A DNA stretch of 44,789 nt. It comes from Promethearchaeia archaeon. Its GTDB lineage: Archaea; Asgardarchaeota; Lokiarchaeia; Sigyniarchaeales; SOKP01. A program made the translations under genes and the position numbers. Each line of letters begins with the position of its first letter. Position 1 is the first letter of the stretch. Of the stretch, positions 35,785 to 43,117 are shown one piece after another. The notes beneath the pieces are model-generated. The model was not told the DNA's origin. It was given only the letters and a program-made list of their open reading frames with translations, and searched no databases. The stretch lies in assembly GCA_046483985.1 (NCBI GenBank), contig JAWOCD010000095.1:1-44789 (forward strand), given 5' to 3'.

Positions 35785-35845
35785 TTTAATATCAAACTTG
35801 TATTTTATTTTTTAGTTAATTTTTCTTTATTCTTACAATAGTTTA

Positions 35846-35861
35846 GAAAAAAATTTAAATA
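35846..35861 (+). promoter_or_regulatory. BRE/TATA-like element upstream of the trp leader
   Basis: GAAAAAAA-TTTAAATA about 50 nt before the leader ATG; could also serve the divergent VOC gene. Confidence 0.45.
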
Positions 35862-35912
35862 TCATTAAAAACCTTTTTTTATAACGCATTACAAAGTCAA
35901 GTTGGAAAACTT

Positions 35913-35984
35913 ATGAATGGAAAAGGAAAATACACTCGTTTTTTACCTATAACTTGGTTTTGGGCTTGGCGTTGGCGTGCATAA
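35913..35984 (+). CDS. trpL: Putative trp operon leader peptide MNGKGKYTRFLPITWFWAWRWRA
   Basis: 23 codons with 4 TGG within 7 codons near the 3' end, same strand and upstream of trpD. Confidence 0.8.
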   Translation: MNGKGKYTRFLPITWFWAWRWRA

Positions 35985-36425
35985 ACTTTTCTTGCATCGG
36001 CCAATAATGATTCTTGTAATAGCTTAATAATCTAATTCTAATTTGCTATTCTAAGATTTGTGTTATAGATAAAATATTATAAAAAATTCATCAATTAATT
36101 ATAATAACTCTGGAATAGGTTAGGCTTTTATAGGAGTCCAATAAAATTAAGCATTTTTTAAATAATCAAAAATCTCAAATATAATTCAATTAAAAAAATT
36201 GGAATGAAGAATAATGAAGGAATACAAATGTATCATTTGTTTATATAGTAGGTTTAGTAATTTAATTGGTAAAAATAGGAAAAAAGATACGGAAATCCCT
36301 ATGCACATGGAATCAAAAGAGAATGACCAAATAAAATCTGAAATATTCAAGCAAATGATGGATTTGGTAAATATTAGAGATATTGTAAAATACAAAATTT
36401 AAATTTTCAAATGGAGGTAAACAAA

Positions 36426-37484
36426 ATGGAAAAAACGAATGTTATAACTGCCATCAAAAAGATTCTTGAGGAAAAGCATTTACACCGAGAAGAAGCCGCA
36501 AATATAATGAAAGAAATTATGTCTGGCAAAGTTTCAAATGCACAACTTGGAGCGTTTTTAACAGCGCTCAAAATAAAAGGTGAAACTATTGAAGAAGTAA
36601 CTGGATTTGCTGAAGCTATGCGAATGTTTGCAAAGCAGATCAATCCTGAAGTAAAAGGAAAACTATTAGATACATGTGGAACTGGAGGAGATAAAATAAA
36701 AACATTTAATATCAGTACTATTTCAGCATTTGTAGTGGCTGGAGGAGGGGTTTCAGTTGCCAAACATGGAAACCGAGCAGTGACCAGTAACTGTGGAAGC
36801 GCTGATTTATTAGAAGGTTTAGGGGTAAATATAAACTTAGAACCAAAGCAAGTCAAAAATTGCATAGAAAAGACCGGAATTGGCTTTATGTTTGCACCTC
36901 TCTTTCACCCTGCCATGAAACATGCAATGCCAACTCGGAGAGAACTCAAAATTCGGACAGTTTTTAATATTTTAGGGCCCTTAACAAATCCAGCGAATGC
37001 ACAATGTCATGTATTGGGAGTTTTCGATAAAACTTTAACAAAACTCATGGCAAATGTGTTAGGAAACGGATTACAAGCAAAACACATCTTTAGTGTACAT
37101 AATTCATGCGGGGTTGATGAGTTAGTTCCAATGGGCATTAATTACATTACGGAATATCAGAGCGGCAAAGTTAAAAATTATGCAAAGACTAATGAGGATT
37201 TCGGGATTCCCCTGTGCAATGTTAAGGATTTACGACCCGACTCTGTTAAAGAAAACCTAAAAATTGCAGTAAAGATATTGAAAAATGAGATGCGCGGTCC
37301 GAAATATAATACAATACTAATGAATACCGCATTAGCATTTCAAAGTGCAAATATGGCATCTGATATTCTGGAAGGAATGGAAATTGCGGAAAATTCGATT
37401 AAATCGGGAAATGCATACAAAAAGTTGGAACAATTGATTGAAGTTTCAGATGGAGATATGCAAAAATTAGTACAAATAGTATAA
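36426..37484 (+). CDS. trpD: Anthranilate phosphoribosyltransferase
   Basis: DTCGTGGD, FNIST, KHGNR, GSAD, RTVFNILGPL.NPA; start chosen after GGAGGT SD (ORF track start 36411). Confidence 0.95.
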   Translation: MEKTNVITAIKKILEEKHLHREEAANIMKEIMSGKVSNAQLGAFLTALKIKGETIEEVTGFAEAMRMFAKQINPEVKGKLLDTCGTGGDKIKTFNISTISAFVVAGGGVSVAKHGNRAVTSNCGSADLLEGLGVNINLEPKQVKNCIEKTGIGFMFAPLFHPAMKHAMPTRRELKIRTVFNILGPLTNPANAQCHVLGVFDKTLTKLMANVLGNGLQAKHIFSVHNSCGVDELVPMGINYITEYQSGKVKNYAKTNEDFGIPLCNVKDLRPDSVKENLKIAVKILKNEMRGPKYNTILMNTALAFQSANMASDILEGMEIAENSIKSGNAYKKLEQLIEVSDGDMQKLVQIV

Positions 37485-37490
37485 TAACCA

Positions 37491-38294
37491 ATGATTGCTA
37501 ATAAAATAAAAGAAATTGTAAATCACCGGAAAGAATCCTTGAAACTAACAAGAGAAATAATAAGAAAAGAGGATTATCAGCCGCTTACTAAGAAAAAGAA
37601 ACCGCTTAGTCAATCAATTAAAGAATGTTCTAATATAGCGATTATTTCTGAGATAAAACCCGCATCCCCCACGTTAGGAGTAATTCAGGAACATCTGGAT
37701 ATTAAAAAAATATCCACTCAGATGGAGGAAGCGGGAGCGGTTGGATTAAGTGTATTGACTGAACCAAATTATTTTCAAGGAAGTTATTCAAACTTGGACA
37801 TTGCGGTAAAAAACACCTCAATTCCGTGTCTTATGAAGGATTTTGTGGTTGATGAGATACAATTTAAAATAGCGTCCCGACTAGGAGCCACGAATATTTT
37901 ATTGATTAATTCAATTATAGACTTAGAAAGGTTTTATGATCTTGCGATACAATATGATCTAGAGCCCTTAATAGAAATCCATGATGAGAAAGAACTGGAG
38001 GATATAGCGAGATTATTAGAAATAGGATATTCTCCCAAGTTAATCGGCGTTAATAATAGAGATCTTCAAACCCTAAAAATTAATCTCGATACTTCTCGAG
38101 AGTTAATTCCAAAAATAAAAAAAGAGCTAAGAGAGGACTTGATTATCATTAGTGAAAGTGGAATTCAATCTTATGGTGATATAATAAATCTCAAAAGATA
38201 TAAAGTAGACGCCTTTCTCATCGGTACGTTGATTATGCAATCGGAGAATAAAACTGAAAAAATTCATCTCCTAAGAGGAAAGAGGGTTGATTGA
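37491..38294 (+). CDS. trpC: Indole-3-glycerol phosphate synthase
   Basis: EIKPASP, LSVLTEP.YF.GS, KDF, GVNNRDL, SESGI. Confidence 0.95.
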   Translation: MIANKIKEIVNHRKESLKLTREIIRKEDYQPLTKKKKPLSQSIKECSNIAIISEIKPASPTLGVIQEHLDIKKISTQMEEAGAVGLSVLTEPNYFQGSYSNLDIAVKNTSIPCLMKDFVVDEIQFKIASRLGATNILLINSIIDLERFYDLAIQYDLEPLIEIHDEKELEDIARLLEIGYSPKLIGVNNRDLQTLKINLDTSRELIPKIKKELREDLIIISESGIQSYGDIINLKRYKVDAFLIGTLIMQSENKTEKIHLLRGKRVD

Positions 38295-38959
38295 AATTGG
38301 TGAATTACGTTAAAATTTGTGGACTGAAAGAAATTAAAAATATTCAGACATGCATAGATTATGGTGCAGATGCAATAGGATTTATTTATAATGTCCCAAA
38401 ATCTCCCAGAAACTTAAATCAAAGAAACATTAATCAATTTCATAAATCCGTTTATAATCAGATTTTAACTGTGGGAGTCACAAAGGCAAAAAAGTTAAGA
38501 GATATCAATCGGATGAATGCTAAAATAGACACTGATCTCCTTCAGATTCACTGTTCTTTGTCATTTGACTCTCTAAGTAAATTATCTTCCAGTTTAAAGA
38601 AAAAGATGATCATTGCCAGGAAGATGAATTTTTCGAATTTAAAAAAATTGCAAAACGATATACGGAAACATAGTGATGATTTCTATGGTTTTCTTATAGA
38701 CAATAGTGAGGGACATGGAGATACGCTGAAGATAAACTTAGTAAAACACTTTTTAGATGGACTAAACGATGAAAGAATTATTCTCGCTGGGGGTATAAGC
38801 ATAGGTAACATTGAACAAGTAGTTATGAATTTAAACCCATATGGTATAGATGTTAGTAGTTCATTGGAAAGCAAAAAAGGACTAAAAAACGACAAAAAAA
38901 TAGAGGATTTTTTAAAAAAAATAAACAACATAAATGATAAAAGAGGATTGAATAGTTAG
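38291..38959 (+). CDS. trpF: Phosphoribosylanthranilate isomerase
   Basis: VKICGL, GADAIGF, SPR, QIH, ILAGGI, GIDVSS.LE. Confidence 0.92.
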   Translation: MKLVNYVKICGLKEIKNIQTCIDYGADAIGFIYNVPKSPRNLNQRNINQFHKSVYNQILTVGVTKAKKLRDINRMNAKIDTDLLQIHCSLSFDSLSKLSSSLKKKMIIARKMNFSNLKKLQNDIRKHSDDFYGFLIDNSEGHGDTLKINLVKHFLDGLNDERIILAGGISIGNIEQVVMNLNPYGIDVSSSLESKKGLKNDKKIEDFLKKINNINDKRGLNS

Positions 38960-40159
38960 ATGAAATATAAAGGAAAATACCCAGATAAATTAGGACGATT
39001 TGGAAAATTTGGAGGAATGTTCGCTCCAGAAATATTGATGCCTGCATTAAATGAGTTGAAAGAGGGTTATAAGAAATATGTCTTTGATGAAGATTTCCAA
39101 AAGGAATTTCAGCATATTTTAGAGGATTATAGTGGAAGACCTACTCCATTATATTATGCAAAACAATTAAGCGAGAATATAGGCTTTCAAGTATATCTTA
39201 AAAGAGAAGATTTAAATCATGGAGGAGCCCATAAAATAAATAATGTAATGGGGCAAGCCCTTCTTGCTAAGAAGATGGGAAAAACAAAATTGGTTGCTGA
39301 AACGGGCGCAGGTCAACACGGATTTGCTACAGCAATAGCTGGAGCTTATTTTAATATGCCTACCAAAATCTTTATGGGAGAAGTAGATATTGAAAGACAA
39401 TCTTACAATGTCTATCGAATGCAACTTTTGGGAGCTGAAGTTGTTCCTGTAAAATCCGGTTCAAGAACTTTAAAAGATGCAATAAATGAAGGTCTACGAT
39501 ATTGGATTGCCAATGTGGAAAATACCCACTATCTTATGGGTAGTGTAGTAGGACCCCACCCATATCCTTTGCTAGTTAGGGAGTTTCAGAGAGTTATTGG
39601 AAAAGAAATTAGAAACCAGATCTTAGAAAAAGCAGGAGAACTCCCTTCTGGAATTGTGGCATGTATAGGCGGAGGAAGTAATGCAATTGGATCATTTTAT
39701 GATTTTATCGAAGATGATGTCCAGCTCATTGGAGTCGAGGGGGCTGGAAAAGGAAAAGACACTGATGAACATTCTATTGCACTAGGGCTGGGACAAAAAG
39801 GGGTCTTACACGGATCGCTTCAATATCTCCTACAGAATAAAGATGGTAATATATTAGAAACGCATTCCATAAGTGCAGGGTTAGATTATCCTGGAGTGGG
39901 ACCAGAACATTGTTTTTTAAAGGAAATAGATCGTTTAACAGTAGCAAATGCTACAGATGATGAAGCCTTAGCCGCTTTCAAAAAATTAAGCCGTTTAGAG
40001 GGGATTATCCCTGCCTTGGAAAGCTCACATGCTTTAGCATATTTAGAAAAGATGAAAGGAGATTTCTCTGATAATGATATAATAGTCGTAAATCTCAGCG
40101 GAAGTGGCTCAAAGGATTTAGGGATTGTAAAAAAACATATAGATTTTAAATATATATGA
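38960..40159 (+). CDS. trpB: Tryptophan synthase beta chain (TrpB1)
   Basis: [57 protein letters not shown]. Confidence 0.97.
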
Positions 40160-40191
40160 ATGTCAAATTATAAGGAGAGAGATTAATTTTT

Positions 40192-41025
40192 ATGTCAAAT
40201 TTAAGAACAAAAAATAGATTAATAAATTTATTCGAAGAGCAGCCAAAAAAAAAGGGAGTTTTCATGCCATTTTTAGTGACGGGCGATCCCAACCCAGAAC
40301 AATTCCTCAATAATGTAAGGAAAATAGAATCGTACTTTGACATCCTTGAACTAGGGATCCCCTTTTCGGACCCGATTGCAGACGGTCCCACCGTTCAAAA
40401 AGCAAATCACAGAGCCTTTCAGGCGGGGATGAATACAACAAAGGGATTAGCCCTCATAAAATCGGTTCGGGAAATTACAAAAAAACCGATAGTTATTCTG
40501 ACATACTACAACATCTTAATACAAGGCGGCGAAAGTATTGAAGATTCGCTAAACAGAACCCTTTGTTCCTTTAAGGAGTGTGGAGTAGATGGGATTGTGG
40601 TCGCGGATCTCCCTGTCGAAGAGGCGGGATTAGCTCTTAAATATTGTAAAAAGTATGATATAAAGCTCATCTTCATTGTCGCACCAACCACTACGAAAGC
40701 ACGCTTAGAAAAAATACTGGACCACGCAGAAGGATTTCTTTACCTCATCTCAGTTATGGGCGTGACCGGCGCTCGTGAAAAAGTTGCTAAGATTACCACG
40801 GATACCATTCACAAAATTAAAAGTGATATGAAAAAAGATTTACCTATCCTTGTAGGTTTTGGAATATCCAAACCAGAGCATGCGAATACCTTAATTGAAG
40901 CGGGTGCGGATGGGGTAATTATTGGGTCGGCAATCATAAACCGAATTGAAAAAAACCTTGGAGATTATGAAAAAATGGAACAACAATTAGTTGATTTTGT
41001 ATCTGGCATAGGGAAGAGGTTATAA
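40192..41025 (+). CDS. trpA: Tryptophan synthase alpha chain
   Basis: ELGIPFSDPIADGPTVQ, APTT, GVTGAR, VGFGIS, GVIIGSA. Confidence 0.97.
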   Translation: MSNLRTKNRLINLFEEQPKKKGVFMPFLVTGDPNPEQFLNNVRKIESYFDILELGIPFSDPIADGPTVQKANHRAFQAGMNTTKGLALIKSVREITKKPIVILTYYNILIQGGESIEDSLNRTLCSFKECGVDGIVVADLPVEEAGLALKYCKKYDIKLIFIVAPTTTKARLEKILDHAEGFLYLISVMGVTGAREKVAKITTDTIHKIKSDMKKDLPILVGFGISKPEHANTLIEAGADGVIIGSAIINRIEKNLGDYEKMEQQLVDFVSGIGKRL

Positions 41026-41027
41026 AA

Positions 41028-42521
41028 ATGAATTTCGATATCCATATTGAGCAAATTGGAACTTTGGGTAATATATTCGGTTTTTATAAGTATTTAGTGA
41101 ATAAATATGATCTAAAACACCATGCTCTATTGGAATCTTCAGAAACTAATACTAATGAAACACTCTATAGCTTTATTGCTTTAAAGCCCGATTTTATGCT
41201 AAAAATTAATGGAGATAATTTCAAAATCTACGACATAACTAGTGCCCGGGGCGAAAATATTAAAGATTATTTAGAATCCAGAGATCCCACAGAGGAAAGA
41301 CCCAATAACTCCCTCCCTTTTAAGGATAATGTTGATTATAATATGGTGGCTTTGAAGACTCTTAGTCGTTTAACGCCCTACTCAAATCTTCCCTTTACAG
41401 AATTATTTCCCAGAAATATTTTTTACGGTGGTATGCTTGGATATATCGGCTACGATGTAGTGGCACCGTATATAGGTTATAAATCCTCCAGTGAATTTCC
41501 AGACATTCTTATGGGTTTATATACAAAAGTATTAGTATACTCGCATAAGTCAAACGCCTTATTTATGATTGATAATAGCACCGGGGATTATGCAAAAGAC
41601 AAGGATATACGATACAAGTTACATTCGTTTAATAAAAATAATAAACAGAGAGAAAAAAAAGATCTCCCAAGGGGGATCGAAGATATCAATGAATCAGGAT
41701 TCAGATCTAATACTAGCAAGAGTGCTCACACACGTATGGTGGAGAAGACAAAGGAATATATTAATGCCGGGGATATTATCCAAACCGTCATCTCTCGTCG
41801 CTTATACACCGAGAGCAAGGTGAATCCCATGGCAATTTATGAGGTGCTGAGAGCTTTAAACCCTTCGCAATATATGTATAACATTCATTTTGATGATATC
41901 AAAATCATAGGGAGTAGTCCCGAAGCACTTATTTCGAAAAATAAAAATATCTTAAATACAATACCCATCGCCGGAACGATTAAACGGGGACAGACCCCGG
42001 AAGAAGACTTAAAGCTAGAAAGAGATTTACTCGCAGACCCGAAAGAAAGAGCTGAGCATCTCATGTTGGTCGATTTAGCTAGAAATGACTTGGCAAAAGT
42101 CTCCTATCCAGGTTCTATTGAAACGTATGATTTGATGGGCGTTCAGAAGTATCAAAAAGTACAGCATATTGTAAGTAAAATCCGAAGTAGGACACCTCTT
42201 GATGGTTTTCAAGTGCTAAAGAGCGTCTTTCCGGCCGGAACGCTCAGTGGAGCACCAAAAAAACGCGCAATGGAAATAATTCAAGAGCTTGAAACAGAAA
42301 ATCGTGGACCATATGGAGGCGGGGTAGGCTATTTTTCGTTTAACGGGGATATGACATTCGCTATCGCCATTAGAACTCTCTTTGGACTTAACAGTACCTA
42401 TTTTGCTCAGGCAGGTGGCGGAATAGTGGCAGATAGCCGACCAGAAAATGAATTTCAAGAGACTTATAATAAACTTTATAGTGTATTAAAATCGATCAAG
42501 ATAGCGGAGGGAATGGAATAA
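41028..42521 (+). CDS. trpE: Anthranilate synthase component I
   Basis: LLES, NPSQYMY, GSSPE, PIAGT, KERAEHLMLVDLARND, FPAGTLSGAPK. Confidence 0.95.
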   Translation: MNFDIHIEQIGTLGNIFGFYKYLVNKYDLKHHALLESSETNTNETLYSFIALKPDFMLKINGDNFKIYDITSARGENIKDYLESRDPTEERPNNSLPFKDNVDYNMVALKTLSRLTPYSNLPFTELFPRNIFYGGMLGYIGYDVVAPYIGYKSSSEFPDILMGLYTKVLVYSHKSNALFMIDNSTGDYAKDKDIRYKLHSFNKNNKQREKKDLPRGIEDINESGFRSNTSKSAHTRMVEKTKEYINAGDIIQTVISRRLYTESKVNPMAIYEVLRALNPSQYMYNIHFDDIKIIGSSPEALISKNKNILNTIPIAGTIKRGQTPEEDLKLERDLLADPKERAEHLMLVDLARNDLAKVSYPGSIETYDLMGVQKYQKVQHIVSKIRSRTPLDGFQVLKSVFPAGTLSGAPKKRAMEIIQELETENRGPYGGGVGYFSFNGDMTFAIAIRTLFGLNSTYFAQAGGGIVADSRPENEFQETYNKLYSVLKSIKIAEGME

Positions 42522-43117
42522 TGAAGATCTTGTTTATTAATAATTATGACAGTTTTATTTATAATTTAGTTAATTATATTTGTCAACTGGAGCCAAACGG
42601 CAATATTTTTGTTGAGGATAACCAAATAAAGGTAGAAACAGTAAAAACAATGAAAGTAGATAAAATAATTATCTCTCCCGGTCCAGGACACCCAAAATAT
42701 CAAACAGGTACAGTTATTCCAATAATTAAGGAATTCTACGCTAAAATCCCGATATTAGGAATTTGCTTAGGACATCAAGCGATAATCGAGGCTTTTGGAG
42801 AGGATGAAGACGTGGAATATGTAGGAAGATCTAAAATAGGGCCTGTCCATGGTAAAATCTCAAAAGTATTTCATGATCAAGAAGGAATTTTTAAGGACAT
42901 TCCAAATCCTCTGCAAGCCGTCCGGTATCATTCATTGGCTGCTCAAGCTGATGTTTTACCCCAACAGCTCAAAATCAGTGCAACTGCAGACGACGGGACT
43001 ATCATGGCTGTAAGACACAAACTGTATCCAGTGAAGGGAATTCAGTTCCATCCCGAATCTGTCAAGATGAAACCCCATGGAATGCAAATCTTAAAAAATT
43101 TCTTGCAAGTCTCATAG
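42521..43117 (+). CDS. trpG: Anthranilate synthase component II
   Basis: NYDSF, ISPGPG, LGICLGHQ, RYHSL, QFHPES. Confidence 0.95.
   Translation: MKILFINNYDSFIYNLVNYICQLEPNGNIFVEDNQIKVETVKTMKVDKIIISPGPGHPKYQTGTVIPIIKEFYAKIPILGICLGHQAIIEAFGEDEDVEYVGRSKIGPVHGKISKVFHDQEGIFKDIPNPLQAVRYHSLAAQADVLPQQLKISATADDGTIMAVRHKLYPVKGIQFHPESVKMKPHGMQILKNFLQVS

Follow-up and report, generated by a model that had tools for sequence, protein, structure and literature searches.

A conserved tryptophan-rich short reading frame ahead of the trp operon of an Asgard archaeon: a candidate ribosome-dependent tryptophan sensor

Introduction

Can an archaeon sense tryptophan through a ribosome that translates a leader peptide? 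Leader-peptide attenuation is a textbook bacterial mechanism, and it needs ribosomes that travel close behind RNA polymerase. For the trp genes of archaea, the regulators named to date are repressor proteins. A full-text literature search turned up no account of archaeal leader peptides that sense amino acids, and attenuation goes unmentioned in a review of transcription-translation coupling in archaea. The question is raised by a contig from a Promethearchaeia archaeon (JAWOCD010000095.1 of assembly GCA_046483985.1; the whole stretch of 44,789 nucleotides that was analysed is called the window below). A first, sequence-only reading of this DNA had noticed an unannotated, Trp-rich open reading frame (ORF) upstream of a trp operon and had proposed that ribosomes stalling on it control the operon.

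The leader ORF and its operon

The ORF (35913-35984, plus strand) has 23 codons, reads MNGKGKYTRFLPITWFWAWRWRA and ends in TWFWAWRWRA before the stop. Four TGG codons fall at alternate positions (35955, 35961, 35967 and 35973, all within 35955-35975 of the plus-strand sequence), which places four of them within seven codons. On the same strand, 441 nt separate the leader stop from the ATG of trpD (36426-37484, plus strand, identified with Pfam), whose Shine-Dalgarno sequence GGAGGT lies at 36413-36418 (plus strand). This gene opens a trpD-trpC-trpF-trpB-trpA-trpE-trpG operon (36426-43117, plus strand; Pfam matches with E from 1e-32 to 1e-85). The 23-residue frame with its four alternating TGG codons ahead of trpD is thereby confirmed as first described.

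Other parts of the initial description were borne out as well. It had called the site a GC-richer island, and the GC content is 0.40 at 35920-35999 versus 0.12-0.22 on either side. It had seen no regulator next to the operon. The gene upstream of the leader is divergent and encodes a glyoxalase-fold protein, the other neighbor of the operon encodes a flavodoxin/4Fe-4S protein, and Pfam identifies no regulators among these neighbors. No tRNA genes were found in the window. Finally, it had placed a TATA-like element before the ORF. The box ATTTAAATA (35853-35861, plus strand, from the sequence) is located 60 nt upstream of the leader ATG, and relatives have their boxes at the same distance, with TATA-like octamers clustering 50-65 nt upstream of the leader ATG in most trpD leaders. 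By the usual archaeal TATA-to-start distance, transcription is predicted to start near 35883, about 3 nt 5' of a helix (P0) described below. The predicted 5' UTR of the leader is about 25-30 nt, so the transcript is predicted not to be leaderless.

The label "Asgard" is justified because, among named assemblies, the trpD loci nearest to this one come from Promethearchaeota/Promethearchaeia metagenome-assembled genomes (MAGs), at 63-68% identity. Outside Promethearchaeota the nearest trpD homologs are bacterial (Desulfobacteria, Omnitrophota and Verrucomicrobiota; loci L082-L154), at about 45-51% identity. These bacterial homologs are closer than the trpD matches found in several other families within the phylum, which have 36-39% identity. 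Contigs of 184-254 nt that match trpD exactly, within 36465-37431, occur in two salt-lake metatranscriptome sets and one freshwater-sediment DNA set, and therefore this organism, or a near-identical one, is present at those sites at low depth. The contigs from these three public sets lie inside trpD only, leaving the leader and spacer uncovered.

Rarity within the genome and a second leader

How unusual is such an ORF in its own genome? A census of all intergenic ATG-initiated ORFs of 8-60 codons in the whole 4.06-Mb assembly (n = 9028) contains two with at least four Trp in any eight residues, one before the trp operon and the other before trpB2. Three of the 9028 have at least three Trp in their last nine residues, the third sitting before a gene for a small GTPase. 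A chance origin of the Trp-rich ORF is excluded.

The second Trp leader, MAPVKLDFWRWQWPWRW, is found on contig 50 of this genome (G000) at 42673-42726 (minus strand; the same as locus L031:5674-5727). It ends 171 nt upstream of a gene on the same strand for a 467-residue TrpB2-type tryptophan synthase beta chain. Between the two leaders, the Trp pattern is all that is shared, and they belong to different sequence subtypes. Together, the trp-operon leader and the trpB2 leader constitute a small Trp regulon.

Matching leaders rich in His, Leu or Phe had also been anticipated at other amino-acid operons. That expectation failed in this genome, as an unbiased scan for runs of any one residue among its short intergenic ORFs revealed no leaders for other amino acids. 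The scan yielded artefacts of poly-T and poly-A (runs of F and K), ORFs of repeat elements and a few His or Thr candidates. The His and Thr candidates were rejected, since the genes downstream of them have no recognizable link to amino-acid biosynthesis (first 90 residues, read by eye). Among the repeats, five near-identical short ORFs beginning MTTFTTNITLGQI are scattered over the genome (G000 C116:41816, C57:18851, C96:60178, C96:18048 and C97:99) and probably belong to a repeated mobile element. Another repeated ORF (MYFLSCFGFFF...) is present on contigs C59, C9 and C97.

Conservation and specificity

The sequence-only reading had suggested looking for short Trp-rich ORFs in relatives, and they are conserved upstream of trp genes. 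In the family of this genome (f1), 135 genomes were searched. Twenty-five have trpD, one of them on a contig too short to judge, and in every one of the 24 loci with enough upstream sequence (24/24) a Trp-rich short ORF, with the pattern W-x-W and a stop within three codons of the last Trp, precedes trpD on the same strand. Examples of the C-termini in this family, each followed directly by the stop, are WFWVWCWHA, WIWAWRWHA, WQWPWRWQ, FWRWQWPWRA and RWHWSWRA. Within the same order, trpD is likewise preceded by leaders in families f2, f3 and f4. Elsewhere in the phylum they occur in f7, f13 and f19, which belong to other orders and have trpD as the first gene. None was seen upstream of the first gene of the operon in the genomes searched from f6, f10, f11, f12, f17 and f22.

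The trpB2 gene is preceded by a leader in this genome and in 17 of 24 other f1 genomes (one weak model hit included), and several f2-f4 genomes show the same arrangement. In many members of the family (G001, G007, G013 and others), trpD is missing, as apparently is the whole trp operon, and trpB2 with its leader has been kept. This combination suggests regulated indole salvage.

What is preserved across these distances? The leaders of distant families share only the W codons and their place in the ORF, and in some relatives the Trp codons are reduced to two. A blastn search with 35840-36430 against all fetched loci gave a match confined to 35951-35977. The distance from leader stop to gene start is a fairly constant 136-190 nt in most relatives, with a range of 136-508 nt; in one distant family the leader ends 55 nt before trpD.

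The association is also specific. A covariance model of the W-run and hairpin, built from 28 leaders of the commoner subtype and run on 41 whole genomes, gave 22 matches, all 22 directly upstream of trpD or trpB2. As a control, the 69 nearest bacterial trpD loci contain four W-rich frames, about 450-490 nt upstream and none of them leader-like.

The reading frame itself is conserved

Is the ORF translated, or is it a by-product of a conserved RNA? The reading frame was assessed in 38 f1 leaders. An ATG and open frame ahead of the Trp run are present in 35 of 38 in the Trp frame, versus 3 of 38 in each of the other frames, and the three leaders without an in-frame ATG have TTG. A stop no more than three codons after the last Trp is found in all 38 in the Trp frame, versus one and none in the other frames, although the search rule demanded a stop within ten codons, which makes the stop result, but not the ATG result, partly one of construction. 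The spacing from one Trp codon to the next is two codons in 97 of 107 cases. Between them stand 18 different triplets, and the N-terminal sequences vary too. Leader length ranges from 15 to 46 codons, with a median of 18. This frame evidence favors translation and indicates that the ORF itself is conserved, not the RNA alone.

One natural variant is worth recording. In relative G340 (L194 oriented, about 930-1035) the stop lies eight codons further downstream, past the hairpin, and the leader ends in WSWPSWRWHAYGCIGQ. This leader with its moved stop could reveal whether the position of the stop matters.

A folded leader domain

The end of the ORF lies in a predicted hairpin (hairpin 1; 35971-36005, plus strand) with a 5' arm at 35971-35981 and a 3' arm at 35993-36005, joined by 11 bp that leave a bulge of 2 nt. 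The last Trp codon and the Arg and Ala codons make up the 5' arm, and the 11-nt loop (35982-35992) contains the UAA stop. In the window this hairpin has a predicted energy of -12.2 kcal/mol (63-nt segment; z 0.08) and is alone no stabler than shuffles. Across the 38 leaders the arrangement recurs. The stop is enclosed by at least 4 bp in the minimum-free-energy fold of 37, and in 25, versus 17.6% of dinucleotide shuffles, it occupies the apical loop of a hairpin with 4 bp or more. With the alignment held fixed, 83% of hairpin 1 pairs are formed, and column-wise covariation is no greater than in shuffles. By eye, complementary arms appear in shifted registers that are specific to lineages (GCGTT/AACGC, GTGTT/AACAC, GCACGC/GCGTGC and TTGGC/GCCAA), and as support for hairpin 1 they are suggestive only.

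A second helix, P0, is predicted between 20 nt of the 5' UTR (35886-35905, plus strand; 8-27 nt upstream of the ATG) and the 23 nt that adjoin hairpin 1 on its 3' side (36001-36023, plus strand). The duplex has a predicted energy of -16.4 kcal/mol with a z of -3.3. The sequence-only reading had noted neither this helix around the ORF nor the additional leader ahead of trpB2. Cognate P0 partners from the 38 leaders average -10.4 kcal/mol versus -7.6 for non-cognate ones, and none of 5000 permutations was as good. Among the 38, the window's own partner comes first. The strands of P0 are unrelated between lineages (AAAUAUGAUUUA/UAAAUCAUAUUU, GGUUUAG/CUAAACC and UGUCCUAU/AUAGGACA). Taken one by one, 14 of the 38 leaders have a significant P0 (z below -2); the window's closest subtype relatives, genus g5, are not among them. 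Its outer 9 bp occur in the minimum-free-energy fold. The 147-nt leader domain as a whole (35882-36028) folds at -35.8 kcal/mol with a z of -2.70, and in this fold the start codon and the last three Trp codons are base-paired.

The two helices meet at CCAA(U) (36001-36005), which has alternative partners: UUGG of the Trp run, within hairpin 1, or GUUGG at 35901-35905. Therefore, a ribosome on the Trp codons would be expected to free CCAA(U) and to lengthen P0 towards the start of the leader.

The commoner leader subtype, which includes the trpB2 leader of this genome, has in addition a second hairpin of about 55 nt, 86-110 nt past the stop, with the loop GAAUUCC (L155:2928-3001, minus strand, and 23 related loci; alignment A4). 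It covaries well: 12 of 18 pairs are changed on both sides, and the score is 0.297 versus 0.129 in shuffles. A motif search did not find this hairpin in the spacer of the window. The notion that the second hairpin, or the word AATTCTAAT, is a shared operator for a transcription factor was dropped, as the words are too common (80-101 matches in this AT-rich genome). In a genome search the trpB2 leader was the sole site of the long motif.

The spacer and the search for an output element

If the leader is a sensor, what does it act on? The AU-rich untranslated spacer that follows the domain (36024-36213, plus strand) has no similarity to relatives by blastn. Its only run of at least five T is at 36154-36159, which is also the first one after the leader stop. 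The 331-nt stretch of leader and spacer together (35905-36235) folds with a z of -0.68. Next comes a 62-codon ORF (36214-36402, plus strand), a truncated relative of an ORF of 80-90 codons (containing IFGPEKSKTAKFIAEN) that sits between leader and trpD in several genera. The 62-codon ORF matches no Pfam family and has only six homologs, all in Lokiarchaeota MAGs.

Neither folding nor a survey of T-runs revealed a 2:3 antiterminator, a terminator hairpin with a U-tract or any unmasking of a ribosome-binding site. The earlier statement that a classical terminator is not visible thus holds. When the Trp run was forced to be unpaired in the leaders of 30 relatives, neither the downstream fold nor the accessibility of the Shine-Dalgarno sequence was altered, minimum-free-energy models of AU-rich RNA being weak evidence. 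A run of at least five T lies within 60 nt past the stop in 21 of 38 leaders versus 39% of background windows. This enrichment is modest, the runs are not consistently placed and ten leaders have none. Only as a modest enrichment, then, is there anything to be said for an oligo-T terminator right after hairpin 1, and this candidate was rejected.

Two further candidates met the same fate. The classical 1:2, 2:3, 3:4 logic would require pairing of the hairpin 1 3' arm with the 5' arm of the second hairpin, and this pairing has no covariation in the alignment as judged by eye and is not favored by constrained folds. Sequestration of the Shine-Dalgarno sequence by a small third hairpin is confined to one or two relatives. 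A hairpin with a U-tract directly behind it does occur in families f7 and f19; these structures look like intrinsic terminators, with a 5' arm made of Trp or stop codons.

Proposed mechanism

The leader is probably a cis-acting Trp sensor that works through the ribosome and controls trpDCFBAEG. The sensor half of this proposal is well supported: the ORF, its Trp codons, their conservation, the exclusive link with trp genes and the folded domain are all observed features, laid out as in the first half of a bacterial trp attenuator. From these features we infer ribosome stalling, co-transcription of leader and trpD, and an output step. Co-transcription across the 441 nt is presumed from same-strand adjacency and conserved spacing only.

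In the proposed sequence of events, the promoter about 60 nt upstream would give a transcript with the 23-codon leader as its first reading frame. When charged tRNA-Trp is scarce, the ribosome would stall on the four alternating UGG codons. Because the stalled ribosome would cover codons of the 5' arm, hairpin 1 would be kept open and its 3' arm (..GCCAA) freed. The freed arm would then extend P0, tying the 5' UTR to sequence past the hairpin. Conversely, when Trp is plentiful the ribosome would get to the UAA in the hairpin loop and depart, and the compact leader domain would refold. In the stalled state, open hairpin 1 and extended P0 might shield the 5' domain, such that polymerase or mRNA survives the 441-nt spacer. 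In the released state, the spacer would be exposed to premature termination, at the oligo-U 36154-36159 or by FttA/aCPSF1, or to decay.

Would this amount to true ribosome-mediated attenuation in Asgard archaea, in which the pioneer ribosome on the Trp codons remodels a domain of three helices (P0, hairpin 1 and the 5' UTR) and the output is archaeal? The chances appear evenly balanced. Such an output would be FttA/aCPSF1, oligo-U termination or decay from the 5' end, rather than a bacterial switch between terminator and antiterminator.

Bacterial systems share some parts of this scheme and differ in others. In E. coli trpL the Trp codons lie in the 5' arm of the 1:2 hairpin and the stop codon is at its top. 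In its predicted hairpin 1 the window has its Trp codons and stop in the same positions, and like trpL of E. coli and Salmonella (RF00513) its leader is a short ORF at the 5' end of a trp transcript, with late Trp codons and a stop soon after. However, the two leaders of this genome have no Rfam match (RF00513 gave nothing even at E up to 10), and neither a 2:3 antiterminator nor a 3:4 terminator with a U-tract was found. The Asgard leaders also have three to five alternating Trp codons where E. coli trpL has two adjacent ones, a P0 helix that encloses the whole ORF, and a spacer of 136-508 nt to the first gene. Archaeal RNA polymerase, for its part, is not known to depend on hairpins when it terminates.

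Another group of bacterial leader attenuators depends on a factor: tnaC with Rho in E. coli, and mgtL and mgtP with Rho in Salmonella. They share with the Asgard case a leader ORF and, behind it, a long untranslated spacer that lacks an intrinsic terminator. By analogy, the position of the ribosome could set the access of a termination factor, and FttA/aCPSF1 would be the archaeal counterpart, although no factor site is recognizable by sequence in the Asgard spacer. TnaC differs in another respect, in that it responds to free Trp and switches on a catabolic operon; the likely sensor here is the codons of a biosynthetic regulon. TrpY of Methanothermobacter regulates the same pathway, also in an archaeon. 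Nevertheless, TrpY is a DNA-binding protein at the promoter, as opposed to a translated mini-ORF in a folded RNA.

Alternative explanations

What if the leader controls translation instead? Mycobacterial polycysteine leaderless short ORFs form attenuators at several loci, each with its own sensor, a set named the "ribulon," and the mechanism is established in bacteria (bioRxiv 10.1101/834739). Among systems without a terminator this is the nearest mechanistic analog. It shares with the Asgard case an unannotated short-ORF sensor, the lack of a terminator and one sensor per locus (here the trp operon and trpB2). The short and fairly constant 136-190 nt between leader stop and gene start in most relatives, and the 55 nt in one distant family, would also suit such a mechanism. 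However, constrained folding of 30 leaders gave no consistent gain in accessibility at the Shine-Dalgarno sequence and start codon, and the trpD Shine-Dalgarno sequence is about 430 nt from the window's leader with no conserved sequence between them. The architecture differs in two ways: no masking helix was found in the Asgard leaders, and the predicted 5' UTR of the window's leader forms P0. Translational attenuation of this type is an unlikely account of the window.

Alternatively, the UGG repeats, 6 nt apart, could be an RNA element bound by a Trp-activated protein (TRAP-like) or by tRNA-Trp (T-box-like), with the reading frame incidental. The triplets are strictly periodic, much like the regularly spaced repeats in the trp leader RNA that TRAP of B. 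subtilis recognizes, and the leader domain is folded, with P0 and, in the other subtype, a covarying 55-nt hairpin. But the TRAP repeats are (G/U)AG, not in-frame UGG codons of a conserved ORF, and the TRAP protein (PF02081) is absent from this 97%-complete genome in a search whose Bacillus subtilis control was positive. Searches of both leaders against T-box and other curated Rfam models at a permissive threshold gave chance-level matches, none near the gathering score. Moreover, ATG and a close stop are kept only in the W frame, and distant families have only W codons and ORF position in common. An RNA site of this sort is quite improbable.

Just as improbable is a leader with no effect on trpD, being either a short transcript in its own right or a remnant in decay. 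In this case the promoter of the operon would lie inside the spacer. The 441 nt are long, not conserved and full of TATA-like words and hold a degenerate, truncated ORF, and for these last two reasons an internal trpD promoter is conceivable. Yet ORF, four W codons, hairpin 1 and P0 are all intact, this P0 is the best of 38, and relatives with equally long spacing (423-508 nt) retain intact leaders too.

It is very improbable that the ORF serves as a functional Trp/Arg-rich micropeptide, either a TnaC-like arrest peptide that detects free Trp inside the ribosome exit tunnel or a trans-acting peptide or RNA like peTrpL/rnTrpL of Sinorhizobium, for although W-x-W-x-W with R, Q or P between is conserved as peptide with the stop always close behind, and trans roles of bacterial trp leader products are known (PMC7298713 and PMC6614838), the residues between the W vary widely (18 codons), some leaders are down to two W, induction by free Trp would have the wrong sign for biosynthetic genes and each trp locus has its own copy in cis.

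Implications

What would a cis-acting, ribosome-read Trp sensor mean for these organisms? As a leader peptide that senses an amino acid it would be the first in Archaea, and it would be direct genetic evidence of regulatory transcription-translation coupling in the lineage closest to eukaryotes. It would also provide a compact and mutable test case in which archaeal termination or mRNA decay could be set against ribosome position. For the uncultured Asgard genomes, it would give a signature, W-x-W-x-W and then a stop within a hairpin, with which regulated trp genes could be annotated. Finally, the leaders ahead of trpB2 show that this gene, retained by many relatives without a trp operon, is apparently under the same control.
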